From contig OY762926.1 in the NCBI GenBank assembly GCA_963666735.1, positions 1,376,001-1,440,000 of the forward strand: DNA of 64,000 nt, written 5' to 3'. Both the position numbers and the translations under genes were made by a program. The stretch comes from Gemmatimonadota bacterium. Lineage in GTDB: Bacteria > Gemmatimonadota > Gemmatimonadetes > Palauibacterales > Palauibacteraceae. Shown here in pieces: positions 33,202 through 49,900 of this stretch (positions within the stretch are counted from its first letter, which is position 1; each line of letters opens with the position of its first letter). Under the pieces are notes generated by a model. It saw only the letters and a list, made by a program, of their open reading frames with translations. It had not been told where the DNA came from and searched no databases.

Positions 33202-34053
33202 GTGCCGGAACTCCCCGAAGTCGAGACGATGCGCCGGGACCTCGCCCCGCTGCTCCGAGGCCGGCGGATCCGCCGCGTCCGCGTCCATCACGACGATCTG
33301 ATCCTCGGAGGGCTTTCGGCGCGGTCGTTTTCCCGCGCCGTGCTCGGGCGCGCCTTCGGAGACGCGGACCGCCGGGCCAAGCACCTGCTCTTCCCGCTCC
33401 ACGCGGCGGAGGGGATCGACGGTCCGGTGGAGCAATTGATGCGCGTCCAGGTCCGCATGACCGGCCGTTTCGCGCTCGCCTCGGAACGTCCCGACTCCCC
33501 GGAGTTCCGGCATCCGGGCCTCGACCTCGAACTCGACGATGGCCAGACGCTGTTCTACGACGACGTCCGGCGTCTCGGCGGCTTCGACCTGCTGACGCCC
33601 GAGGCATGGAAGGCCCGCGCGGACGCGCTCGGGCCGGAACCCCTCGGCCGAACGTTCACCGCCGCGCGGCTGGCTCGGATCGTCGCGCCGCTGCGGGCCC
33701 CGATCAAGAACACGCTGCTGGACCAGCGGCGGATCGCGGGTGTGGGGAACATCTACGCCAGCGAGGCATTGTACCGCGCGGGGATCGACCCGCGCCGACC
33801 CGCCGGTTCGCTCGACACGGAAGAGGTGCGCCGCCTGCACCGGGCGGTCAGGGCGGTCTTGCGCGAGGCGATCGAGAGCGCGGGGACGACGCTCAGGGAC
33901 TATCGCGCCGTGAACGGCCGCTCGGGCTCCTTTCAAACGCGGCTGGACGTCTACCAGCGCGAAGGAGTCGGGTGCCCGGGTTGCGCCCGGCCGATCAGTC
34001 GGATCGTGCAAGCCGGACGGAGTTCGTTCTTTTGTGCCGGCTGCCAGAGCTAG
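33202..34053 (+). CDS. mutM: Formamidopyrimidine-DNA glycosylase
   Basis: PELPEVET, AGVGNIYASE, C-terminal CPGC...CAGCQ Zn finger. Confidence 0.97.
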   Translation: MPELPEVETMRRDLAPLLRGRRIRRVRVHHDDLILGGLSARSFSRAVLGRAFGDADRRAKHLLFPLHAAEGIDGPVEQLMRVQVRMTGRFALASERPDSPEFRHPGLDLELDDGQTLFYDDVRRLGGFDLLTPEAWKARADALGPEPLGRTFTAARLARIVAPLRAPIKNTLLDQRRIAGVGNIYASEALYRAGIDPRRPAGSLDTEEVRRLHRAVRAVLREAIESAGTTLRDYRAVNGRSGSFQTRLDVYQREGVGCPGCARPISRIVQAGRSSFFCAGCQS

Positions 34054-34216
34054 CGTCGCCCCCCCGGTGACCGGATCGGCGCATGCCGACGACGGCCTTC
34101 GGTGCGCATATTGGTCGCGGAACGGTGTAGGGTGGGTCGACACCCGGCACGCCACTTCGGCGGCGGCGATCCGGCCGCTGCCGGCGCGCCGCCGCGACCC
34201 GGAGGGACAGGATCGA

Positions 34217-34810
34217 GTGAGCTACTCGGATCACAGCGAGCAGACGCTGGTGGAGATGTGTCTCCGCGGCGACGAGCGGGCCGCACGCGAGATCGTGCTT
34301 CGGTTCGAACGTCCGGTCTTCTCTCTCATCTTCCGAATGGTGCGGGACCGTGAACTGGCGGAGGACCTGGCTCAGGAAACGTTCGTCCGCACGCTGAACA
34401 ATCTCCGCAGGTACGATCCCTCCTACAAGTTTTCCTCCTGGCTCTTCAAGATCGGCTACAACCTGACGATAGATCATCTGCGCAAGAAGGAACTCGATGT
34501 CGTTTCCATGCACGGGGCGCCGGACGCCGTGACCCCGGACCGCCAGGCCGCAACGGAAATCACGCTCGTCTCGGGCGACGAACGACCGGATGAACTACTC
34601 GAGGCCCGCGAACTCGGATCCGAGATCGAAGCGGCCATCGGACAACTGCGACCCGAATACCGAACCGCGATCCTGCTGCGGCACATCGAGGGCTACGCGT
34701 ACGACGAAATCGCGCAGGTGATGGAGATCCCGCTCGGGACGGTGAAGACCTATATCCACCGGGCAAGAAACGAATTGAAGGCCGCTCTCGTACATCTGAC
34801 GGAGCCGTAG
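34217..34810 (+). CDS. ECF RNA polymerase sigma factor, SigW-like
   Basis: AEDLAQETF, KFSSWLFKIGYNLTIDHLRKK, YDEIAQVMEIPLGTVKTYIHRAR; GTG 34217. Confidence 0.92.
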   Translation: MSYSDHSEQTLVEMCLRGDERAAREIVLRFERPVFSLIFRMVRDRELAEDLAQETFVRTLNNLRRYDPSYKFSSWLFKIGYNLTIDHLRKKELDVVSMHGAPDAVTPDRQAATEITLVSGDERPDELLEARELGSEIEAAIGQLRPEYRTAILLRHIEGYAYDEIAQVMEIPLGTVKTYIHRARNELKAALVHLTEP

Positions 34811-34864
34811 CAGGCCCGCGGGTGCTTCTTCCGCGGGTTGCCGACGCCTCCAGGGAGAACAGGA

Positions 34865-35656
34865 GTGAACTTGTCGCACCTTACACCTGAGGGAATCGAG
34901 CGATTCGCCAGCCGGAGGTCGGCGGCGTCCCCGCACGGCACGATGGCCGACCATCTGGCCGCGTGCGCCCGTTGCCGGAAGGAAGTGGAGGCGCTGCGGG
35001 AGGTCGTCGCGTTTCTCGAAGGCCTGACCCCGCATCGGCCGACCGACGGATTTGCGGAGGGGGTCGCACGGCGGATCGACTTCGCGGGCGCCGCGCTCGA
35101 CCGCCGGTTGGCACAGTTGCCCGAGTGGTCGCCCGCGCCTGCCTTTGCGAGCGATGTCCTGGCGCAGGTCGACCTGCCTCACCCGGCGCTCGATCGCGCG
35201 CTCTCCGGGCTCCGCACCTGGTCCCCCGCCCCGGCGTTCGCCTCGGCCGTCATGGCCCGCGTGCGATTGCCGGTCCCGTGGCCCGAGCGCCTCCTCCGCT
35301 TCGCGCGGCGGCGCCGGGCGGCGCTGGCCACAGCGGGTGCGGCCACGCTGACCGTGTCGGGAGGCGCCGCGGCCTGGCTGTTCGGCGCGCAGGGCCTGGC
35401 CCCCGGTCAGCTTATCGCAGTCGCCCTCAGCGGTGCGCGGACCGTGCTTGTCGACACCATGCTCGCGGCGGGCCGCCTGGCGTACCGTTTCGGCCTCGTG
35501 GACGCGGGCGGATCGATTGCCGACCGGATCAGCCCGACCGCCGCGCTCGGCAGCCTGGCCTTGTCGAGTCTCGTCGGGCTCGCCTCTCTCTGGTACATGG
35601 CCAGACTGTTCCGGCAGCCGCTCCCACGACGCGTTCGCATCGAGAGGGCCGCATGA
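34865..35656 (+). CDS. Zn-binding (ZAS) transmembrane anti-sigma factor with internal repeats
   Basis: HLAACARC (Hx3Cx2C) directly after the ECF gene; C-terminal hydrophobic segments. Confidence 0.8.
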   Translation: MNLSHLTPEGIERFASRRSAASPHGTMADHLAACARCRKEVEALREVVAFLEGLTPHRPTDGFAEGVARRIDFAGAALDRRLAQLPEWSPAPAFASDVLAQVDLPHPALDRALSGLRTWSPAPAFASAVMARVRLPVPWPERLLRFARRRRAALATAGAATLTVSGGAAAWLFGAQGLAPGQLIAVALSGARTVLVDTMLAAGRLAYRFGLVDAGGSIADRISPTAALGSLALSSLVGLASLWYMARLFRQPLPRRVRIERAA

Positions 35657-37254
35657 CCCGGGGGCTGACGTTCCTGGCCTGTCTCGCGGTCGCGCTTCCC
35701 GCCAGCGCGCAGGAGGTCGGCATCGCCGACGCCGCGATCACGCTCTCGGCCAGCGGCCGGGCCGAACTGTGGTTCGAACTGGAGAGCGGAACAGAGCATC
35801 GACTTCGCTTCGAGGGCGAGACCGTCGAGGTCGACGGAATCGGGGTCGGATCCTATGCGGAGCGCGGCGGCCTGGAGAGCGCCTGGCGCGAGTTCCTCCG
35901 CGAACACGCGGGAGAGGATGCTCCCGCGGTGCGCGGCGGCCTGGTCGATTTCCGGCGGTTCCTGGAGGAGTGGAGATCGTCGGAGGAGGCCACCGACCGG
36001 GACGCGGCCCTGGCCCTCGCCGGTCGGATCGACGCGATTCTCGGGCTCGCCGCGCCGTCGCCGACCGGCGCGGCGCCCGCCCTTCCGACGGGCGAGGCGG
36101 CGCCGGCGGTGTCCGATCGATCCGGACCCATGCAGATCGTTCCCGGCGGACTGGGTTTCGACGTCACCGGCGAGCTGGATCGCCTGCGCGACGCGCTCGA
36201 CCGGCTCGGCGACTCCGGCGAGTCCATTGAGGATGGGCTGGCCATGATCGTCCACGGCGACTATGAGGTCCTCGCCGAGGCCACGATCCCCGGAGATGTC
36301 GCCATTCTCGACGGAACACTGCGACTCGCCGGGGGCGTCGAGGGCGACATCCTCGTGCTGGACGGCACGCTCGTGCTGGACGGCGGCGCCCGCGTGCGAG
36401 GCGACGTGCTTCAGGTGGGAGGCGACGTCGACTTCAGCGAGGAGGCGACGAGCGTCGAAGGGGAGATCCTCTCCGACATCCGGCTGGCGCCTTCGGAACC
36501 CTCCGCGAGGTCGGCGCCGGACGCTCCCTCCGTTCAGCGGGTCGAGTCGTTCGAAGCCCCGATGCGGATGCGGCCGGCGCAGCCGGGCCTCGGATCGCGT
36601 CTCGCGCGCAACTTCGGACGGGCCGCGGAGGGCGTGGTCGCCGCGGGGTGCGCGTTCATCGTCCTCGCCGCCCTCGGCTTGCTGCTCGTGTATTTCGGGC
36701 GCCGCCGACTGGAAACCGTCTCGGATACGGTTCGGCTGGAGTTCGCCCGTTCGTTTGCCATGGGCCTCGCCGGGGAGGTGCTGTTCCTTCCCGTGCTTCT
36801 CGTCCTCACGGTGCTGGTCATCACTATCCCGGTCGCACTCTTCCTCATTCCCGCAGTGGGGTTCGCCCAAGTCGCCGGATATCTTGCGGCGGCGCACGCC
36901 GGCGGCGAGATCTTCGCCCGACGCCGCTTCCGCTCCGAATGGCTGGAGAGACTCCGCCGCTCGAACTCCTATTACTACGTCGTCAGCGGACTCGCGCTTC
37001 TGATGCTCCCCTTCGCCGCCGGCGCCGTCCTGTGGGTGTTCGGCGGCGCGGCGGACTTCGTACGCGGCCTGATCCTCTTCGTAGCCATCGTCGGCACATG
37101 GGTCGTCGTCACGGCCGGTTTCGGGGGCGTCCTGCTCACGCGGGCCGGCGGAAGGAGCGTCGTGATCGACTGGTCCGCGGACAGCGCCCCCGATGGCGGT
37201 GCGTCGCCGGGGGCCGGGACCGATACGCCATCCAACACCGTAGATGATGCCTGA
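35653..37254 (+). CDS. Exported/membrane protein with bactofilin-like (polymer-forming) beta-helix repeats and C-terminal TM bundle
   Basis: Signal peptide ending ASA-Q; repeats GDVAILDGTL/GDILVLDGTL/GDVLQVGGDV; about 5 TM helices; ATGA overlap with the anti-sigma gene. Confidence 0.7.
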   Translation: MTRGLTFLACLAVALPASAQEVGIADAAITLSASGRAELWFELESGTEHRLRFEGETVEVDGIGVGSYAERGGLESAWREFLREHAGEDAPAVRGGLVDFRRFLEEWRSSEEATDRDAALALAGRIDAILGLAAPSPTGAAPALPTGEAAPAVSDRSGPMQIVPGGLGFDVTGELDRLRDALDRLGDSGESIEDGLAMIVHGDYEVLAEATIPGDVAILDGTLRLAGGVEGDILVLDGTLVLDGGARVRGDVLQVGGDVDFSEEATSVEGEILSDIRLAPSEPSARSAPDAPSVQRVESFEAPMRMRPAQPGLGSRLARNFGRAAEGVVAAGCAFIVLAALGLLLVYFGRRRLETVSDTVRLEFARSFAMGLAGEVLFLPVLLVLTVLVITIPVALFLIPAVGFAQVAGYLAAAHAGGEIFARRRFRSEWLERLRRSNSYYYVVSGLALLMLPFAAGAVLWVFGGAADFVRGLILFVAIVGTWVVVTAGFGGVLLTRAGGRSVVIDWSADSAPDGGASPGAGTDTPSNTVDDA

Positions 37255-38176
37255 TGCTCCGCTGGCCCGCGCGGCGGCGCGGATGCTGCCGGTCGTGCTC
37301 GTTTCGCTGTCGCTCGGCGGAGCGCTGACGCCGGGCGCCGCGCAGGAGTGGCGGGACTTCCGGACGGCGCGGCAACTGGGCGACCTGGAAGCGCTGAAGA
37401 TCGAACTGATGTACGCGGGCGGGCGACTCGACGTATCCCCGTCGGACACACAACTGCTTTACGATGTGCGGCTCCGTTACGACGCCGAACGTTCCCTGCC
37501 CCGTCGCGGATGGCGCCGAGCCGGTCGAACGGGGCACTTTCGGCTGGCCACGGCTTCGTCTTCCGAGGACCGGCGCGATGCCGCCGAAGCGATGCGGTCC
37601 GGCGAGCTGGAAATCGAGCTCGAGGATCTCCCTCGCGATGCGGACGCGGCGGGAAGGCTGGACCTGTCGCTGAACTCCTCGGTGCCCACGGATCTGCGGC
37701 TGGGGATCGGTGCCGGACGAGCGCGCCTCGACCTCGGCGGCGCCCACCTTACGGCGCTTGAGATCATCACCGGAGCCGGCGACGTGGAGGTCGGTTTCGC
37801 CCGCGAGAACCGCGCGGCAATGGAGTTGCTGTCCATCAAGTCGGGCGCGACCGCCTTCATGGCCGAGAACCTCGGCAACGCCCGGTTCCGGCGCCTGGAG
37901 TTCTACGGTTTCGTCGGCGACGTGGTCCTGGACTTCTCGGGATCCTGGCGATCGAGCGCCGAGGCCGAGATCAGGATGGGGCTGGGCGAACTCCTGATGC
38001 GGGTTCCGGCGCATATCGGCGTCCGCGTTCGGCGTAGCGGACTCGCCTCACTGAACGCGGCGGATTTCAAGAAGGTGGGAGACTACTGGTTGAGCCCGAA
38101 CTGGGAGACGGCACGCGTGCGGCTGGAGATCACGCTGGTCGCCGGGCTCGGCTCCGTCATCGTGGAGCACGGCTAA
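37244..38176 (+). CDS. Exported beta-repeat protein, LiaF/DUF2154 (toast-rack)-like
   Basis: Signal peptide; repeating GAGRARLD/GAGDVEV/GVGD/GLGELL beta units. Confidence 0.55.
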   Translation: MMPDAPLARAAARMLPVVLVSLSLGGALTPGAAQEWRDFRTARQLGDLEALKIELMYAGGRLDVSPSDTQLLYDVRLRYDAERSLPRRGWRRAGRTGHFRLATASSSEDRRDAAEAMRSGELEIELEDLPRDADAAGRLDLSLNSSVPTDLRLGIGAGRARLDLGGAHLTALEIITGAGDVEVGFARENRAAMELLSIKSGATAFMAENLGNARFRRLEFYGFVGDVVLDFSGSWRSSAEAEIRMGLGELLMRVPAHIGVRVRRSGLASLNAADFKKVGDYWLSPNWETARVRLEITLVAGLGSVIVEHG

Positions 38177-39454: not shown

Positions 39455-41854
39455 TCAACGAGAGCCGGGCAGAAATCGGAGCTCGCTTTCCGCCGTTGCG
39501 GACGGCCGGCCCGGGCGGAGTTCGATGAGCGGACTCTCGGTCCACACGGCTCCCATGTCTCGATAGTGTGGATCGAGCGGGTTCCCGGCCTGGCCCGTGG
39601 GCAGCAGGAAGTAGCCCGCCATGTCCGCGGGCGCGGCGCGAGCGACGAATCTCGCGCTGGGGCCGTATTCGCTCACGACCGGGGACCGCCACGCCGTGGA
39701 GTCGAGACGCGATCTCAGAGACGGGGCGTCGGGGCGAACCGTGTGGGGCCCGCCACGCGACGGATAGGGTCCGACGTGGAAACCGAACAGGCGGTCGAGC
39801 AACGCCACGGTTCCGAGCGGGTGGGCCGACCGCTCGCGGTGGATTTCTCCCCACGAGCTCGCGGGTACGCCCGCCGCGGTGCGGGCCGCCTCTTCCTCCA
39901 GCGTCTCGAGGCGCTCGACCTCCGGCGTGCGCGCATCGTCGATCCAGGCGCTGTCGCCGGTCTCGACGATCTCCATGAACGCGAGATCGGGGAACCACCC
40001 GTCTCCGCCCTCGAACTCGTCGGCGACGATGAGTTCGCGCAGGCGGTAGAGCCAGGTGAAGAAGGGGACGGCGCCCCGACTTTCCGTTTCGGTACGCAGG
40101 TCCCAGCGTTCGAGCCGAAGCGCGAGCGAATCGAGGCCCGCGCGGCGCGCGGCGCGGACGGCGCGTGGCCGGTAGCGCTCGGCCCAGAGGCTGTGGCTGT
40201 CCAGCTGCGCCTCGCGCATGTCCTCCACCGTCCAGTCCGACGCCCGAGACACGAGGTCATCGATGCGCCGGGCCCGGAACGGCGCCGGATAGTACGCGCC
40301 CACTCGTCCGAACAGGGGCCGCGCCTGGAGGTTGTTCGCGCTGACCAGATATCCCCGTCCCGGATCTCGTAGCGCCGGCATCGCCTCCGGTGGCCAGAAG
40401 CCCGGCCAGCCCGCGGGCAGGCGCTCGAAGGAGATCGGGGAGGCGCCCTCTCCCGTCCGGCGCAGGGGCACGGACCCCGCCATGCGGTAGCCGATCTCTC
40501 CGCTCGACGCCGCATAGATCACGTTCTGGTGGGGCGAGCGAAAGTACGCGACCGCCTCCACGAACGCGTCAACATCGGAGGCCCGGTTCATCCGGAGGAG
40601 CGCCGCAAAGGGACCCCCGGGCTCAAGTCCCGTCCACAGCAGCGACAGCGTGAGTCCTCCGGCCGGGACGACGTCCGTGATCACCGGGCCGCGCGCCGTC
40701 GAACGTACCACCCAGGTCTCCGGCTCGTCGCGACCCCGCACGTGGATCTCCTCCGTACGGGTTCTGAAGGGTCGCCAGTCATCGGGGTCGCGATACATGG
40801 ACCCGTCGAGGTTGATGCTTTCGACGATGAAGTCCGCGTCGTCCACCTCCGCGTTCGTGAACGACCACGCGACACCCCGGTTGAGCCCGACGATGACGCC
40901 GGGAGCTCCCGGGATGGAGAGGCCCGCCACGGCCAGGTCCGAATCCTCGGCCACGATGGAGTTGAGGTACCATGTGGACGGCGCGCGGAGGGCGAGGTGC
41001 ATGTCGTTTGCGAGCAGCGGAACGCCATCCGCGGTGCGCGAGCCCGCCAGAGCCCACGAGTTCGAGGCGTGGAAGCCGAAGCGGGAGAGATAGGTCAAAG
41101 GGTCGGGGGATGAAGCCGCGGCGCCCGGGTCCGGAGGCATCGGGGTCTCCGCGAAGGCGATACGCGGCGGCGCGGTGCCGGAGGGGAGCGTGTCCTGGAG
41201 GATGGTGGGCCCCCACGCGGGGTATCCGGCCCCCAGCGCCCGACGGTGATCCGCGTCGAGCGTCGCGAGCGCCGTGATCCGGTCCAGTTCCTCCCGCCAC
41301 TCGGAGAGATCCAGCGACATGATGCGCCCGATCGAAAGGGACGCCTGCGGACTCCAGCGCTGCGGCTCGATGCCGAGGATAAGGAATTCGGGGGGCCACG
41401 GCCCTCGCCAGCTCGCGATGCGGGCGTTGACGCCCTCCGCGTAGGCTTCGAGCAGGGCCTGCTCCGATTCCGCCATGTCGTCGAGTTCGCGGCCCGCCGC
41501 CGACCACAGGTCCAGCGTGCGCGCAAGGCGGTCCGCGTCCAGGGCGATCGGACCGAAGAGTTCGGCCAAGCGTCCGCGCGCGACCCGCTGGAAGAGTTCC
41601 ATCTGCCACAACCGGTCCGAGGCGTGCATGAACCCCTGGACGCGCATGACGTCGAGTTCGGTCCCGGCGGCGATGGAGGGAACCGCCCACTCGTCGAACG
41701 TGACGACGGCCGGCTCCGCCAGGCCCGGGAGGACGTGCCGGCCGGATCGCGGCTGCATGGATCGTTGCAGATGGAACCACGCAAACGTCGTGAGAACCCC
41801 CACAACCACAAGGCCGGCCGCCAGCGCGACTCCCGCTCGGCGCCGAAGGCTCAT
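39455..41854 (-). CDS. Penicillin acylase family (S45) Ntn hydrolase
   Basis: DRLWQMEL, beta-chain nucleophile SNSWAL, LANDMHL, PTGQAG; N-terminal anchor. Confidence 0.93.
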   Translation of the reverse strand: MSLRRRAGVALAAGLVVVGVLTTFAWFHLQRSMQPRSGRHVLPGLAEPAVVTFDEWAVPSIAAGTELDVMRVQGFMHASDRLWQMELFQRVARGRLAELFGPIALDADRLARTLDLWSAAGRELDDMAESEQALLEAYAEGVNARIASWRGPWPPEFLILGIEPQRWSPQASLSIGRIMSLDLSEWREELDRITALATLDADHRRALGAGYPAWGPTILQDTLPSGTAPPRIAFAETPMPPDPGAAASSPDPLTYLSRFGFHASNSWALAGSRTADGVPLLANDMHLALRAPSTWYLNSIVAEDSDLAVAGLSIPGAPGVIVGLNRGVAWSFTNAEVDDADFIVESINLDGSMYRDPDDWRPFRTRTEEIHVRGRDEPETWVVRSTARGPVITDVVPAGGLTLSLLWTGLEPGGPFAALLRMNRASDVDAFVEAVAYFRSPHQNVIYAASSGEIGYRMAGSVPLRRTGEGASPISFERLPAGWPGFWPPEAMPALRDPGRGYLVSANNLQARPLFGRVGAYYPAPFRARRIDDLVSRASDWTVEDMREAQLDSHSLWAERYRPRAVRAARRAGLDSLALRLERWDLRTETESRGAVPFFTWLYRLRELIVADEFEGGDGWFPDLAFMEIVETGDSAWIDDARTPEVERLETLEEEAARTAAGVPASSWGEIHRERSAHPLGTVALLDRLFGFHVGPYPSRGGPHTVRPDAPSLRSRLDSTAWRSPVVSEYGPSARFVARAAPADMAGYFLLPTGQAGNPLDPHYRDMGAVWTESPLIELRPGRPSATAESELRFLPGSR

Positions 41855-42426
41855 GGGTCCCCGCCGTCCGCCGGAGCGGGAGACTGCGGCTCCGCATCGA
41901 GCAGGGCGTGGCGTAGCGACACATACCGCTCGCCGTCACGAATGACGAGCGCCCGGGCGACAAGGTCATCGAGCAGCCCGCGTACCCGGTCGAGAGGAAG
42001 TTCGAGCCGGTCGGCGAGCGGAGACGCGCCGGTGCGGCCGAGACTCCATATCTCGCGCCACACCGCGGAGGCGCCGGGATCGAGCGCGCCCATCAGCAAC
42101 GGTTCCCCGTCGGTACTCTCGGCAGCGGCCGCGAGCCCCCGGTGCCGCAGGACCGAGTCGATCGGCCCGAGGTGGTGCTCCGCGATCCCGCGAAAGAGGA
42201 TGAAGGACCGGCGCGGCGAGGCGTCCGAACCGAGCAGGACCAGCTTCGCGACGATTTCGTCCGCGCAGGAGAAATCGATCACGGGGACGTGGCGCAGGTC
42301 GAGGACCGCGAGGACGGTGCGGTCGGCATCGGCGATCTGGCGTTCGACCGTCGCCCGCACCGTCCGTCCGGTCGGACGCGTGACGAGGTAGCTGAACAGC
42401 GTCGTGTGGGCGACCGCCGGTCTCAC
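41851..42426 (-). CDS. STAS-like (DUF4325-type) plus C-terminal winged-helix protein
   Basis: LVTRPTG, VLDLRHVPVIDFSCADEIVAKL (STAS-like); GASPLADRLELPLDRVRGLLDDLVARALV (wHTH-like); start uncertain. Confidence 0.65.
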   Translation of the reverse strand: MRPAVAHTTLFSYLVTRPTGRTVRATVERQIADADRTVLAVLDLRHVPVIDFSCADEIVAKLVLLGSDASPRRSFILFRGIAEHHLGPIDSVLRHRGLAAAAESTDGEPLLMGALDPGASAVWREIWSLGRTGASPLADRLELPLDRVRGLLDDLVARALVIRDGERYVSLRHALLDAEPQSPAPADGGDP

Positions 42427-42430
42427 GCGA

Positions 42431-43333
42431 TCATGTCCCTTCTCTCTCGACCCGCTCGGGCAGGACAATCAGCACCTGAGCGCCGGGAAAACGGGGCAGA
42501 TCCGTGCTGAGCGGCTCGCCTTCGTCCCAGTCCGGCACCCTTGCGATGCTCGCATCGCCGCTTCGGATGCGGATGGCGCCGTTCCACTTGATGATCTGGC
42601 TTCGGATCGCCTGCAGGCCCTGGCCGCGACCGGGATCCGCGAAGCGCGACTCGCCGCGCAGAAAGGCCGCTTCCAACGCGGCTGCCGCCGACCACCGCTC
42701 TCCATAGCGGCGCGCATGCTCGGCGCCCAGGGAGCCCTCGAAGCCCACGCCCACATCCATCACGGCGAGCACGACGACGTCGCGGCCCAGACGTCGCTGC
42801 CACCGGTACCGCTGCGCACACACCCAGCCGATCGAGTTGGCGTGTTCGAGGATGTTCTGGCACACCTCCGACAGCATGACGGAGAAGTGGATCACGGCGG
42901 GGCGGGGGTAGCCGAGCCGATCGTGCAGGATGCGCTGCGCCCGGTCCCGCACACCCTCCACGACCGAATGGACATCCTCGTGCGAGCGGATCGTCGTGAC
43001 TTCGATGAGGGCATCGGAGATCTCGAGAGACGGCTTCGGCAGCTGCTTCAGATCGAACACCTGTGCGGCGGCGGGCCAGAAGCGCATGCGGTTGATGTAG
43101 GAACGGACCTCGGAATCTCGCGGAGGCTCGATCAGCGGAGGCAGCCCCGTGCGAAGGCGCGCCTCCTGACCGACCGCCAGCAGGCCGATGAGCCCGTACG
43201 GCGACACCCAGCCGACGGAGCGGGCATCGAGCAGGAGACGGGCCGCCGGATTGCCCTCCGACCGGACGCGCCGGACCAGCGTCTCGAAGGAAACCTCGTC
43301 CAGGCGTTCGGGGACGCGGACGACCCGGCTCAC
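42431..43333 (-). CDS. N-terminal STAS-like plus GHKL/HATPase_c (RsbW/SpoIIAB-like) kinase
   Basis: N-box SEVCQNILEHA, G1 DVGVG, G2 GRGQGL; no HisKA His box; GTGA overlap with the PfkB gene. Confidence 0.75.
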   Translation of the reverse strand: MSRVVRVPERLDEVSFETLVRRVRSEGNPAARLLLDARSVGWVSPYGLIGLLAVGQEARLRTGLPPLIEPPRDSEVRSYINRMRFWPAAAQVFDLKQLPKPSLEISDALIEVTTIRSHEDVHSVVEGVRDRAQRILHDRLGYPRPAVIHFSVMLSEVCQNILEHANSIGWVCAQRYRWQRRLGRDVVVLAVMDVGVGFEGSLGAEHARRYGERWSAAAALEAAFLRGESRFADPGRGQGLQAIRSQIIKWNGAIRIRSGDASIARVPDWDEGEPLSTDLPRFPGAQVLIVLPERVEREGT

Positions 43334-44355
43334 GCGGCCCCGCCCGCCGGACACCCGGCCCTGCCGGTCAGGAGGCCGGTCTCGGAGCGCAGGTACTCGC
43401 CGAGTCCGGATGCGCCGCGGAATCCAGCGTTCCGTTGCGCCGCCCGCGTCGCCGCCCCGACGGACGACTCGAGATCCTCGCCGCTCAGCATCGTGACGAA
43501 GCAGGTCGCCCCCCACACGTCTCCGCAGCCGGTCGGGTCGCCCCCGGACACCGGCACCTCGGGCTCCACCTTCCCGCTCACGAGCGCTTCCGCAGGCGCA
43601 ACGGCGCCGGGCGGCGGGGGCGCATCGGCCGGCGCCTGCCAGAAGCTGCGGGTCGCGACCCAGGCGGCGCCCCGCTCCCCGAGCGTGACGAGGAGGCCGC
43701 GCGTGACCGGACCCACCACGTCCGCGGCGAGCGCCCATGGATCTTCCCAGCCCGCCGCCAGCATGCCGAGTTCATCCTCGTTCAGCTGCACGACATCGAA
43801 ACAGGAGAGCCAGGCGCGCCAGTCGTCGAGCGGACGCGGAGATCGCACTCCGTCCGTCCCCACTCCGAGCATCAACGAGTGCAGATCGGCATAGACCGGC
43901 CCTCCCGTCGCCGCCCGCAGCGCCGCGGCGGCGGGGAGGTCCACCTCCCAGCCGGCGATGAAATTCACGTAGATCGCGTCGCACGAGCGTGCGAGGGGCA
44001 CGAGTTCCTCCCGGGTCCAGCCCGGCACTCCGCCCGTGAGCTTCTCGGAGCGCCGCGCGTCATCGAGGTAAATGAGTTCGACCCGGTTGTTCGGTTCCGT
44101 CACGGTCCACACGCCATCGAAGGAGTCGACCCGCTCGAGCCCCCCGAGGAAGAGGTCCGCCGCCTCGCGCATGTCCCTTCCGATCTTGAGAATCGGAAAC
44201 AGCGTCCAGCCTTCCCCGGCCTCCGCCAGGGCGGCGTCGGCGGCAGCCAGCGCGTAGCCGATCCCTCCCCATTCCTCGACCGGCCCCTCCCGGCCGATGT
44301 CCCGGGCGCGGATCGTATCCCAGACCATCGTCCCCACGACCCCGAGCCGCGGCAT
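43330..44355 (-). CDS. PfkB/ribokinase-family carbohydrate kinase
   Basis: VVGTMVWD, QLNEDE, VTLGERG, DPTGCGD. Confidence 0.85.
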   Translation of the reverse strand: MPRLGVVGTMVWDTIRARDIGREGPVEEWGGIGYALAAADAALAEAGEGWTLFPILKIGRDMREAADLFLGGLERVDSFDGVWTVTEPNNRVELIYLDDARRSEKLTGGVPGWTREELVPLARSCDAIYVNFIAGWEVDLPAAAALRAATGGPVYADLHSLMLGVGTDGVRSPRPLDDWRAWLSCFDVVQLNEDELGMLAAGWEDPWALAADVVGPVTRGLLVTLGERGAAWVATRSFWQAPADAPPPPGAVAPAEALVSGKVEPEVPVSGGDPTGCGDVWGATCFVTMLSGEDLESSVGAATRAAQRNAGFRGASGLGEYLRSETGLLTGRAGCPAGGAA

Positions 44356-44358
44356 GAC

Positions 44359-45351
44359 TCAGAGGGGTCCGAGCCGCGCGACGCGGAACACGGCGGCGGC
44401 CCCGATGACTCCCGCCATGCCGCCGAGTTCGGTGCGCACGATCCGGCAGGCCTCGGCCGCCGGCCGGAACGCCCGCTTCCTGACCTCACGGCGCAATGGA
44501 TCGAAGAGGTGCTTGCCCGCCCGCGTCACCCCCCCGGAAACCACGATCATCTCCGGGTTGAGAACGTTGATGAGGTTCGCCAGGCCGGTCCCGAGATATC
44601 CCGCCGTCTCGCGCATCACGTCGGCGGCATACTGGTCGCCCGCCACGATGGCATCGGATACGGCTTCGGCCGTGACCGCCCGCAGGTCGCCACCCACGAG
44701 ATCCGGAAGCATGCTCTCGGCGCCTGCCTTCAGCCCTTCCACCGCGCGCGCCGCGATCGCGGGCCCGGAGGCGTAGGCCTCCAGGCAACCGTAGCTGCCG
44801 CACGCGCACTTCCGGCCCGTGGAATCGATCGTCATGTGTCCGATCTCCGCGGCCGCGTCCGAGGCTCCGTGGTAGAGTTCGCCGTCGAGCACGATGCCGC
44901 CGCCGATCCCCGTCCCCAGAGTGATACCCACGAGGTTGTCGACCCCCCGCCCCGCGCCCCGCCACCACTCCCCGAGCGTGGCGGCGTTCGCGTCGTTGTC
45001 GAGTTCGGCTTCGAGTCCGGTTCCCTTCACGATCAGGTCGCGGAGAGGGAAGTTCCGCCACCCGAGATTCGGCGTCTCGATCACGGTGCCCGTGTCGCGG
45101 TCCAGCGGCCCGGGCGCCCCCATTCCGACCCCGACGATCGCGTCCTCGTCGAATCCGCCCTCGCGCGCGGCATCGCGCTTGACGTCGCGGATCATCGACA
45201 CGATCCGGTCCACGACGAATTTCGCGCCGATGTGGGCGTCCGTGGGCAGCGAATGCATGCCGAGCACGGTGCCGCCGTCCACCGGAACGGCGCCGACGTT
45301 GATCGTGGTTCCCCCAAGATCGACGCCGATGATGTGGTTTCTTCCGCTCAC
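44359..45351 (-). CDS. ROK-family sugar kinase (glucokinase/NagK-like)
   Basis: GVDLGGT, DNDANAA, LGTGIGGG, EIGH, CACGSYGCLE; no N-terminal HTH; GTG 45351. Confidence 0.92.
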   Translation of the reverse strand: MSGRNHIIGVDLGGTTINVGAVPVDGGTVLGMHSLPTDAHIGAKFVVDRIVSMIRDVKRDAAREGGFDEDAIVGVGMGAPGPLDRDTGTVIETPNLGWRNFPLRDLIVKGTGLEAELDNDANAATLGEWWRGAGRGVDNLVGITLGTGIGGGIVLDGELYHGASDAAAEIGHMTIDSTGRKCACGSYGCLEAYASGPAIAARAVEGLKAGAESMLPDLVGGDLRAVTAEAVSDAIVAGDQYAADVMRETAGYLGTGLANLINVLNPEMIVVSGGVTRAGKHLFDPLRREVRKRAFRPAAEACRIVRTELGGMAGVIGAAAVFRVARLGPL

Positions 45352-45473: not shown

Positions 45474-47288
45474 CTAGTCGCTCTCGACCTGCAGGACGGC
45501 GAGAAAGGCCTCCTGGGGGATCTCGACGCTCCCGACCTGCTTCATGCGCCGCTTCCCCTCCCTCTGCTTCTCGAGGAGCTTCCGCTTTCGCGTGATGTCG
45601 CCTCCGTAGCACTTGGCGGTGACGTTCTTGCGCAGCGCCTTCACCGTCGTCCTCGCGATCACGTCCCGCCCGATCGCCGCCTGGATCGCCACGTCGAAGA
45701 GTTGCCGCGGGATGAGTTCCTTGAGCTTGCGGGCCATCTTCTGCCCGAAATCGTAGGCCCGGCTCCGGTGCACGATGACGCTCAGTGCGTCCACGGACGC
45801 CCCGTTGAGGAGGATATCCAGCTTCACCAGGTCCGAACGCTCGTGGCCCGTCACCTCGTAGTCGAGCGAAGCGTATCCGCGCGAGACGGACTTCAGCTTG
45901 TCGTAGAAGTCGAGCACGATCTCGCCCAGGGGCATCGAATAGGAGATCTCGACCCGGGTGGGATCCAGATACTGGAGGTCGACGTACTTCCCGCGCCGAT
46001 CATGGCAAATCTTCTGGATCGCGCCGATGTACTCGGCCGGCGACACGACGCGAACCCGGACGAAGGGCTCCCGCACTTCGCTGATGTGGACGCGGTCCGG
46101 CATCTTCGACGGGTTTTCGAGCTGGACCTCGTCGTCGTTCGTGAGCGTCACCTGGTACTCCACGCTGGGCAGCGTCGTGATGAGGTCGACGCCGAACTCC
46201 CGGTCCAGCCGCTCCTGTACGATCTCCAGGTGGAGGAGCCCCAGGAAGCCGCACCGGAACCCGAAGCCGAGCGCGCCCGATGTCTCCGGCTCGTAGTTGA
46301 GGCTGGCGTCGTTCAACTGGAGCTTTTCGAGCGCCTCGCGGAGTTCCTCGAACTGGTCGGAGTCCGTCGGATAGACGCCGGCGAAGACCATCGGCTTCGC
46401 TTCCCGGTAGCCGGGGAGGACCTCCGCGGCGCGATCTCGGGCGTCCAGCACCGTGTCGCCGACCCGCGTATGGCCCACGTTCTTGATCTGGGCCGTGAGA
46501 TACCCGACCTCCCCGCAGCGGAGGGCGCCGGCGCGCTCGAACCCGAGTCGCATGAAGCCGACCTCGTCGACCTCGTAGACCGCCTCGTGGCGTCCGAAGC
46601 CGATGCGCATGCCCTCGCGCAGTTCGCCATCCACGACGCGCAGCATGGGCATCGCCCCGCGATAGCGGTCGTACTGCGAGTCGAAGATGAGCGCTCGCAG
46701 CGGCGCCCCGGGGTCTCCGTCCGGGGCCGGGATGCGCTCGACGATGGCGTCGAGGACCGCGTCGATCCCCGTCCCTTCCTTCGCGGAGACCTGGATCGTC
46801 GAGGCGGGATCCACACCGATCAACTCCGAGATCTCCGCCGCGGCACGTTTCGGGTCGGCCGCGGGGAGGTCGATCTTGTTGATCACGGGGACGACCTCGA
46901 GATCCGCCTCGAGCGCGAGGAAGAGGTTCGCGAGCGTCTGCGCCTCGATGCCCTGAGTCGCGTCGACGACGAGGAGGGCCCCCTCGCACGCGGCGAGACT
47001 CCGGCTCACCTCGTAGGCGAAGTCGACGTGCCCCGGCGTGTCGATGAGGTTGAGCTGATACTCAACCCCGTCCCGGTATCCGTAGGCCATGCGAATCGCG
47101 TTGAGCTTGATCGTGATCCCGCGCTCGCGCTCGAGTTCCATCGAGTCGAGGACCTGTTTCCGCATCCGGCGCGCGTCCACGGTGCCGGTACGCTCGAGCA
47201 GCCGGTCGGCCAGCGTCGACTTCCCGTGGTCGATGTGCGCGATGATGGAGAAATTCCGGATGCGCTCCGTGCTCCGGGGCGCGGTCAC
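45474..47288 (-). CDS. lepA: Elongation factor 4
   Basis: [41 protein letters not shown] 47288. Confidence 0.98.
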
Positions 47289-49570: not shown

Positions 49571-49900
49571 CTATCCAGGCAGCCGGCCAGCCTCCGAGAG
49601 ATCGGGTCGGTGGGCTACGATCCACTCGTGCATATGCTGCAACTGGCCGAGCGGGAGCCCCTCGAGGGATTTTATCTGCAAGCCCGGGATGATACAGGCG
49701 GCGGCGCGGCGGAGAAAGTAAGCGCGCTGGCGGCGGCGCTGTTCCGGGTTGAGGCTCGTACCGCCGGGGATGTCCGGGATCGGCTCCATGAGGCGGCGGT
49801 AACTGTAGACTTCGCGGGCGGAAAACTCTGCGGGGATCAGATAGGCGTGGCCTTCGAGTTCGAGGGTGCCGTCCGATGAGATGGCAACGGGACCTGCCAT
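49571..49900 (-). CDS. Hypothetical protein (109 aa)
   Basis: Strong AGGAGG RBS and own putative promoter; no family recognised. Confidence 0.7.
   Translation of the reverse strand: MAGPVAISSDGTLELEGHAYLIPAEFSAREVYSYRRLMEPIPDIPGGTSLNPEQRRRQRAYFLRRAAACIIPGLQIKSLEGLPLGQLQHMHEWIVAHRPDLSEAGRLPG

Follow-up and report, generated by a model that had tools for sequence, protein, structure and literature searches.

The closest described relatives of the gene pair reported here are CapK and CapS (Chambers, Rani, Min, Villa and Corbett, EMBO J 2026;45:5079, PMC13373217; CapS structures 9Z71-9Z73). According to that paper, CapK, a helix-turn-helix (HTH)-STAS-GHKL protein, is switched on by single-stranded DNA (ssDNA) and phosphorylates CapS, a STAS-winged-helix repressor, on Ser54; this phosphorylation splits the CapS dimer, whereby an adjacent immune operon is derepressed, and the pair acts as a DNA-damage switch for phage-defence genes. 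The W68A substitution in CapK abolishes activation by ssDNA, phosphorylation is much weaker in N218A, and CapK can do without its HTH; a related pair, VapK-VapS, gates the VapC toxin. We analysed a stretch of 64,000 nucleotides (nt) from a Gemmatimonadota bacterium of the family Palauibacteraceae (assembly GCA_963666735.1, contig OY762926.1, positions 1,376,001 to 1,440,000), hereafter the window, in which two adjacent genes, A and B, encode homologs of CapK and CapS. All positions given below are those of the window unless a locus is named.

Our comparative analyses suggest, with a probability of roughly 0.55, that A and B are distant CapK/CapS homologs which became fixed in a housekeeping operon of the Gemmatimonadetes, that A is likely the kinase for Ser53 of B, and that B is likely a phosphorylation-gated protein-interaction switch rather than a CapS-type repressor. 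An earlier note on this DNA had proposed that the two genes form an undescribed serine-phosphorylation switch. However, a STAS-GHKL kinase that phosphorylates a STAS-winged-helix repressor has been published as CapK/CapS, and A and B are full-length homologs of these proteins; thus, the proposed switch corresponds to a described mechanism and is not of a new kind.

Folds, homology and predicted contact of A and B

The features of the two genes are as follows, where counts out of 64 refer to A/B loci from 63 genomes across the class.

42431..43333, minus strand: gene A, CapK-like kinase without an N-terminal HTH, 300 residues; GTG start; STAS plus SpoIIAB-like GHKL
43043..43333, minus strand: STAS domain of A, residues 1-97; fold match; includes W42 and residue 10
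43210-43208 (codon), minus strand: W42 of A; aromatic in 64/64
Within the STAS domain of A, minus strand: residue 10, which occupies the CapK W68 column; aromatic in 1/64
42446..43018, minus strand: GHKL domain of A, residues 106-296; fold match, invariant motif residues
42856-42854 (codon), minus strand: N160 of A; aligns with CapK N218 (HHalign)
42782..42808, minus strand: basic/aromatic beta-hairpin of A, residues 176-184; place of CapK K237/K239, predicted ssDNA contacts
41851..42426, minus strand: gene B, CapS-like protein, 191 residues; GTG start; DUF4325-like STAS plus winged helix
42268..42270, minus strand: Ser53 codon of B, predicted phosphoacceptor; aligns with CapS Ser54; invariant
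41902..42084, minus strand: winged helix of B, residues 115-175; fold kept, short wing; CapS N145, K151 and G169-G170 not kept

Both open reading frames (ORFs) lie where the earlier note had put them, with B starting 4 nt past the stop of A, and both carry the motifs quoted there: in A, LLLDARSVGWVSPYGL (residues 33-48), SEVCQNILEH (the N box, 155-164), DVGVG (G1, 193-197) and GRGQG (G2, 235-239), and in B, VIDFSCADE (49-57), which holds Ser53. Comparison with four loci of the same genus gave synonymous to non-synonymous ratios of 47:9 and 56:19 for A in two loci (the other two having no ungapped match) and of 28:13, 42:17, 45:17 and 43:25 for B in all four, as for coding genes. The named homologs of both belong to Gemmatimonadota, the nearest being from Ca. 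Palauibacter.

In the AlphaFold2 models (predicted local distance difference test, pLDDT, 88 for A and 93 for B), residues 106-296 of A matched SpoIIAB best (1l0o; Z 13.3, root-mean-square deviation (rmsd) 2.6, 133 residues aligned), followed by other RsbW-type proteins, with His-kinase domains all at Z 9.7 or below, and residues 1-97 resembled STAS domains (RsbS, 6jhk; Z 9.0, rmsd 2.8, 92 aligned). The STAS domain joins directly to the SpoIIAB-like fold and Pfam found no HisKA domain in A, in agreement with the proposal that this protein combines STAS and GHKL regions without a His-phosphoacceptor domain; unlike a two-component His kinase, A thus has no DHp/HisKA, and its partner is a STAS-winged-helix protein and not a receiver. 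The fold check also bore out a STAS domain followed by a winged-helix-like C-terminus in B, with matches of the former to RsbS (6jhk; Z 11.1, rmsd 3.5, 106 aligned) and SpoIIAA (1tid_B; Z 9.6) and of residues 115-175 to winged helices (Z 8.3-9.5). The pair therefore resembles SpoIIAB-SpoIIAA and RsbW-RsbV/RsbT-RsbS in its GHKL Ser-kinase fold, its STAS substrate and the serine that starts STAS helix 2, but differs from SpoIIAB/RsbW-type systems by the additional STAS domain of A, the additional winged helix of B and the lack of a linked sigma factor or PP2C phosphatase.

Domain databases gave little by themselves: Pfam returned a sub-threshold HATPase match for A and nothing for B, NCBIfam nothing for either, a sequence search of the PDB with A and B weak matches only, and DUF4325 weak matches to B orthologs (best E 9e-4). 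The CapS structures were not among the fold-search matches, as the database copies searched perhaps do not hold them. PADLOC matches of A to an N-terminal stretch of DrmA (E 9e-8) and of B to CARF (E 0.024) were regarded as shared domains and not as system calls. Csa3, a CARF-winged-helix protein and the top Foldseek match of B, was also rejected (template modelling score 0.30, rmsd 11.8), and the STAS matches obtained with VIA-align were preferred.

Profile comparison connected both proteins to CapK and CapS. The profiles include the characterised WP_001567866.1 and WP_001567865.1; loci of these and of seven relatives were used, the CapS profile comprising 8 sequences. A aligned to the CapK profile over residues 10-289 (HHalign, 99.1%, E 4e-19) with N160 on N218, and B aligned to the CapS profile over residues 12-166, which include both domains (97.1%, E 6e-11), with S53 on S54; with one CapS sequence by itself, the match to the B profile fell short of significance (5.7%), which was reached only with the 8-sequence profile. 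As in CapK/CapS, the substrate gene directly follows the kinase gene, the architecture is STAS-GHKL plus STAS-winged-helix, the N-box Asn and the phosphorylatable Ser are aligned, and both are invariant in all 64 A/B loci. In contrast to CapK, A begins at the STAS domain without an N-terminal HTH, which a CapK-like protein of Sphingobium also lacks, and the W68 column, which is Trp in 7/7 proteobacterial CapK proteins, is rarely aromatic in A.

The A profile recovered 1,811 clusters at E <=0.001 (50%-identity representatives), and judged by sequence A is one of a wide family of HTH-less CapK-like kinases. A bridging group from Nostocales and Chloroflexota, of which 21 loci were found and 20 examined, has an HTH-less kinase followed by a CapS-like gene in 16/20 loci, and its CapS-like proteins match the B profile as well as that of CapS. 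The only plasmid match of A by tblastn falls on a Nostoc kinase that precedes a STAS-winged-helix gene and then a metallo-beta-lactamase (MBL) plus E1/E2/JAB operon; no match of this kinase was found on viral contigs. PADLOC found defence genes in the cargo of 7/12 bridging loci scanned (CBASS, pPIWI-RE, MBL plus E1/E2) and none in the other 5. Several Chloroflexota CapKS-like pairs (L091, L093, L097-L099 and L101) precede proteins of about 1,200 residues, a candidate for uncatalogued defence cargo; four of these were scanned and gave no PADLOC match.

The earlier note had likened the serine of B to the SpoIIAA/RsbV phosphorylation site, and this likeness holds: Ser53 aligns with CapS Ser54, stands at the start of STAS helix 2, and is invariant in 121/121 proteins (B and its 120 best matches) as well as in the 64 loci. 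In A, E156, N160, D193, G195, G197, G235, R236, G237 and G239 are likewise all invariant. Complex modelling, which that note had called for, was carried out with ATP and Mg and gave a score of 0.89 for A with B, compared to 0.00 for the best of 3 controls; among reference cases, 116/157 solved complexes but just 2/215 mismatched pairs score this high. At least 96% of contacts were common to the runs, with a partner pLDDT of at least 89. In the predicted complex, Ser53 meets the N-box helix of the kinase, with contacts to E156, S155, Q159 and G239, so that A is predicted to dock B as SpoIIAB docks SpoIIAA, a docking likewise predicted for CapK/CapS; the basic hairpin of A lies at the place of K237/K239. 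Together with the CapK/CapS homology, the model supports the suggested kinase-substrate relation, and we consider it very probable that A is a serine kinase and that it phosphorylates Ser53 of B in an ATP-dependent manner.

Two cysteines were also observed at this interface. In 63/64 B proteins the residue after Ser53 is Cys54 (window 42265-42267), a position taken by Phe in CapS and in the bridging group, and Cys158 of A lies on the N-box helix in 63/64; modulation through these thiols is possible.

Operon setting and history of the pair

The genes around A and B in the window are listed below.

45474..47288, minus strand: lepA, context gene; start approximate
44359..45348, minus strand: ROK-family glucokinase, context gene
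43330..44355, minus strand: PfkB-family kinase gene, upstream of A; Pfam E 3e-5, under the cut-off
39455..41854, minus strand: penicillin-amidase-family gene; overlaps the stop of B and replaces the usual block of Cys/Met pyridoxal phosphate (PLP) enzyme, ftsEX and M23 peptidase

The stop of pfkB and the start of A overlap by 4 nt, and the stop of B overlaps the next ATG. A neighbourhood survey, also suggested before, showed a conserved housekeeping operon: across 20 loci examined over a wide region, the usual order is lepA-(GT9)-ROK-pfkB-A-B, followed by the Cys/Met PLP enzyme in 16/20 and by ftsE, ftsX and an M23 peptidase in 13/20 each, and pfkB lies upstream of A in 47/50 loci. No immune operon was found beside A/B, the conserved neighbours being lepA, GT9, ROK, PfkB, the Cys/Met PLP enzyme, ftsEX and M23. 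The claim that the operon holds no sigma factor or PP2C phosphatase was likewise upheld by Pfam for the genes of this strand, pyruvate kinase through nifU; an ECF sigma gene lies 7 kb away on the opposite strand.

Both genes are present in 133/151 genomes of the phylum and in none was only one of them found; for all 134 B matches, A lies just upstream on the same strand. The 133 pair-bearing genomes are every genome sampled from eight families of Gemmatimonadetes (f1-f8). No A/B match was obtained in the 17 genomes from other classes, and a targeted search of 14 genomes of family f9 and one of f13 did not find an ortholog of A, returning only two distant paralogs (E 2e-9 and 3e-11); a pfkB homolog was found in 17/21 genomes of that search. 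An initial count of 133/134, which had suggested a core pair of the whole class, thus reflected the sampling.

In 7/7 loci of family f9 (L114-L120; L114:3854-5898), pfkB is directly followed by the Cys/Met PLP gene, with overlap in 6, which represents the empty site of the pair, and the same operon without the pair also occurs in other classes. A FastTree phylogeny of LepA, ROK and PfkB (32 rows) placed f1-f8 in one clade (support 1.0), with f9 and f13 as sister and the other classes outside. As the pair-bearing families form one clade and the sister family retains the empty site, a single gain is the simplest history: a CapK/CapS-like cassette would have entered the junction of pfkB and the Cys/Met PLP gene a single time, in the common ancestor of the eight families, and been kept thereafter. 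A/B is seen as a vertically inherited core pair in a housekeeping operon, whereas CapKS is patchy and located beside immune operons. An arrangement of the Nostoc/Chloroflexota group as sister clade, based on a long-branched tree, was dropped once closer relatives of A appeared.

Several further observations concern the locus and its paralogs. In family f4, a gene of about 105 residues with a weak match to Molydop_binding (a double-psi barrel) follows B and overlaps its stop (L036:8701-9030, L038:8510-8821 and L049:7678-8001), and it also occurs in a lineage where B consists of STAS only (L049). In genome G037, a distant second STAS-GHKL kinase precedes a 113-residue STAS-like gene, a small HTH-like gene and a receiver-like gene, labelled by eye (L080:3244-5633), which is a different layout of the module; G076 carries a second, diverged A/B pair with Gly for Cys54 (L077, C4:5914-7292), and G104 a lone distant kinase paralog (L079:4932-5756). 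In the window, genes for the extracytoplasmic function (ECF) sigma factor, a putative anti-sigma factor, a membrane protein with a weak bactofilin match and a LiaF-like protein form a separate convergent operon with mrp (34034-38176, plus strand), parts of which recur near A/B in L034, L035 and L047. An ORF of 109 residues upstream of pyruvate kinase (49571-49900, minus strand) had no Pfam match. The PfkB-family gene of the window is atypical, yet in the majority of the genomes tested from the phylum a homolog lies next to ROK.

The winged helix of B and the alternative readings

The C-terminal domain of B was compared with that of CapS in 61 loci, three of the 64 being set aside for contig ends or a possible frameshift; this set is enriched for short matches. 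The columns of CapS N145, K151 and G170 are invariant in 8/8 CapS proteins, and K151 and G170 are also K and G in 16/16 bridging proteins (24/24 with CapS). Among the 47 full-length B proteins, by contrast, the N145 column is variable, D or E stands in place of K151 in 34, and all have a deletion of the GG wing. The net charge of the recognition helix averages -1.15 in B versus +2.88 in CapS and the bridging group, the wing has 6 residues versus 14-15, and columns conserved at 95% or more number 17/91 in the STAS domain of B versus 2/56 in the winged helix. In eleven of the 61 orthologs the domain is cut down to its last helix and wing, and in three it is absent.

The junctions are also unlike those of capKS, where promoters and TTAA palindromes occur before and after capS and the gaps are 38 and 132 nt. 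The A-B gap is at most 20 nt in 57/61 loci and the gap after B at most 25 nt in 53/59, with the latter junction at -4 or -1 in 39/59, compared to 3% at random positions; such overlapping or short junctions leave little room for CapS-type promoters. TTAA was found in 0/61 A-B junctions and 2/61 after B, but high GC content makes this motif rare, and the absence of intergenic space is thus the stronger point. A promoter and terminator scan gave chance-level results, and an RNA-labelled run considered as evidence of transcription was discarded, as it holds only contigs of related strains.

These data divide the earlier idea that the kinase directly controls a DNA-binding protein: its kinase-substrate part stands, while DNA binding by B is doubtful, given the loss of the CapS contacts and the truncation or absence of the winged helix in some orthologs. 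The winged helix has a function, though probably not that of binding operators in the CapS manner; a repressor role like that of CapS is doubtful, and without the DNA-contacting residues of CapS, B likely signals by another route. Because W68 of CapK is not conserved in A, and DNA contacts, promoters and immune cargo of the CapKS type are missing from A/B, the pair is not a member of CapKS as defined; it is likely a domesticated variant that remains CapK/CapS-like at the phosphorylation step.

Several observations weigh against the view of B as a protein-interaction switch operated by a CapK-like kinase. The winged helix is full length in 47/61 inspected loci, and a stop by position 141 occurs in only 25/134 unselected B profile matches. 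It is also under purifying selection like the STAS domain (synonymous to non-synonymous 46:15 versus 101:32 within this genus), and R158, R159 and R163 are fairly conserved; this conservation and selection make nucleic-acid binding of another kind possible. No partner of B was found. As SpoIIAB-SpoIIAA-type and RsbW-RsbV complexes are already solved, the high score of the modelled complex may reflect likeness to these and not binding by this copy, and the score carries no ATP-to-serine distance. CapK W68, which is needed for activation by ssDNA, is aromatic in only one of the 64 A proteins. Regarding the donor, full-length relatives of A that are neither Gemmatimonadete nor orthologous, labelled Deltaproteobacteria and Nitrospirota, are closer, with 38-44% identity.

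The alternative that survives best, although we regard it as rather unlikely, is that B is still a phosphorylation-controlled transcription factor like CapS, with a diverged recognition helix and with targets elsewhere in the genome or at the head of the operon. The confident winged-helix fold, its full length in most loci, the purifying selection within the genus and the proven repressor activity reported for its homolog CapS all fit this explanation. A shared regulon, however, needs a conserved recognition helix, and that of B is variable and frequently acidic at its surface positions; the GG wing is missing, the domain is absent from three orthologs and truncated in eleven, and the overlapping junctions leave no intergenic operator beside B. 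Furthermore, this genome contains lexA, so that the pair is unneeded as an SOS substitute.

An improbable alternative is a metabolic or thiol-sensing switch tied to ROK, PfkB and the Cys/Met enzyme, in which a metabolite or cysteine redox state would be the input and B would regulate a neighbouring enzyme or FtsEX. The translational coupling to pfkB and the Cys/Met gene, the presence of Cys54 where CapS has Phe and the loss of CapK W68 are consistent with such a switch. However, sister families and other classes have the same operon with no A/B in it, pfkB also being present in genomes that lack the pair. The pair, in turn, has been kept despite loss of pfkB (L035, L048), relocation (L045, G104) and replacement of the downstream block, as in this window; in G104 (L045:5685-8563), both genes have left the vicinity of ROK/pfkB jointly, and a cyclophilin-like gene, so named from its sequence, separates A from B. 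Since the operon can do without the pair and the pair persists when its neighbours change, the neighbourhood is weak evidence on targets.

Classical partner switching, with A as anti-sigma factor for a sigma factor encoded elsewhere and B as its antagonist, recalls the closeness of the A kinase domain to SpoIIAB and then RsbW-type proteins and of the B STAS domain to SpoIIAA/RsbV, but is very improbable, since SigB/F/G-type sigma factors exceeded the TIGR02980 cut-off in 0/61 class genomes, which argues against a classical anti-sigma role, none of the 20 wide loci has a conserved sigma neighbour, separate RsbW-like genes adjoin the SpoIIE genes of this genome, and CapK, the nearest characterised homolog, was described without a sigma partner.

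A possible mechanism and its biological meaning

For the preferred reading, that of a phosphorylation-gated protein-interaction switch, the following course may be proposed. A would bind B and phosphorylate Ser53. The added phosphate would, on balance probably, break a contact in which Ser53 is buried, like those of the CapS dimer and the VapS-VapC complex, and B would thereby be released from itself or from a partner not encoded at a fixed nearby place. Reset could be brought about by one of two SpoIIE-type phosphatases, whose genes are unlinked to the pair in this genome.

In this scheme, the pair would resemble VapKSC in its logic, in which VapK is also an HTH-less STAS-GHKL kinase, as phosphorylation would gate a protein contact and not DNA binding. 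By eye, from Appendix Table S2 of PMC13373217, the ssDNA-site Phe of VapK (F54) falls at W42 of A and a Lys-Lys at the 178-179 hairpin, though an aromatic residue at this place is common in STAS domains. The two systems differ in that B has a winged helix where VapS has a short inhibitory helix, and in that no PIN/VapC gene was found among the window neighbours or the families common to the 20 wide loci.

As for the input, the hairpin (A 177-185) holds four or more K/R residues in 55/64 loci, and with W42 kept and W68 lost, activation of A by ssDNA appears plausible from sequence comparison; that a single-stranded nucleic acid in the STAS-GHKL groove switches on the kinase is a tentative proposal, with chances somewhat below even. 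A role of the pair as an SOS substitute was weakened by the presence of lexA (in the one genome examined). A bolder version, which we consider a long shot, holds that an immune-regulatory ssDNA sensor of the CapK/CapS type was taken up a single time by a core operon and given a new role, with A still sensing ssDNA via W42 and the hairpin and B, having abandoned DNA binding, serving as a phosphorylation-gated adaptor for an essential target, e.g., the co-transcribed FtsEX-EnvC division machinery. If this were true, most Gemmatimonadetes would possess a fast, post-translational and LexA-independent DNA-damage checkpoint.

Within the literature searched, which did not extend to subscription papers, no report on a Gemmatimonadota pair was found, and the 12 of 14 supplementary files of PMC13373217 that were covered contain no Gemmatimonadota, Longimicrobium or Palauibacter names. 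Relative to that literature, the new element is a vertically inherited housekeeping version of CapK/CapS, apparently acquired a single time at a specific operon junction and retained by eight families. As the proteins are small and the assays would be the same as in the CapK paper, the pair is directly testable. Its kinase-substrate interface is nearly frozen while the DNA-binding surface has been lost; if B indeed has another output, the pair would be a clean example of an anti-phage regulator turned to a role in core physiology, and its output would be the third for GHKL-STAS switches, after the repressor CapS and the antitoxin VapS.

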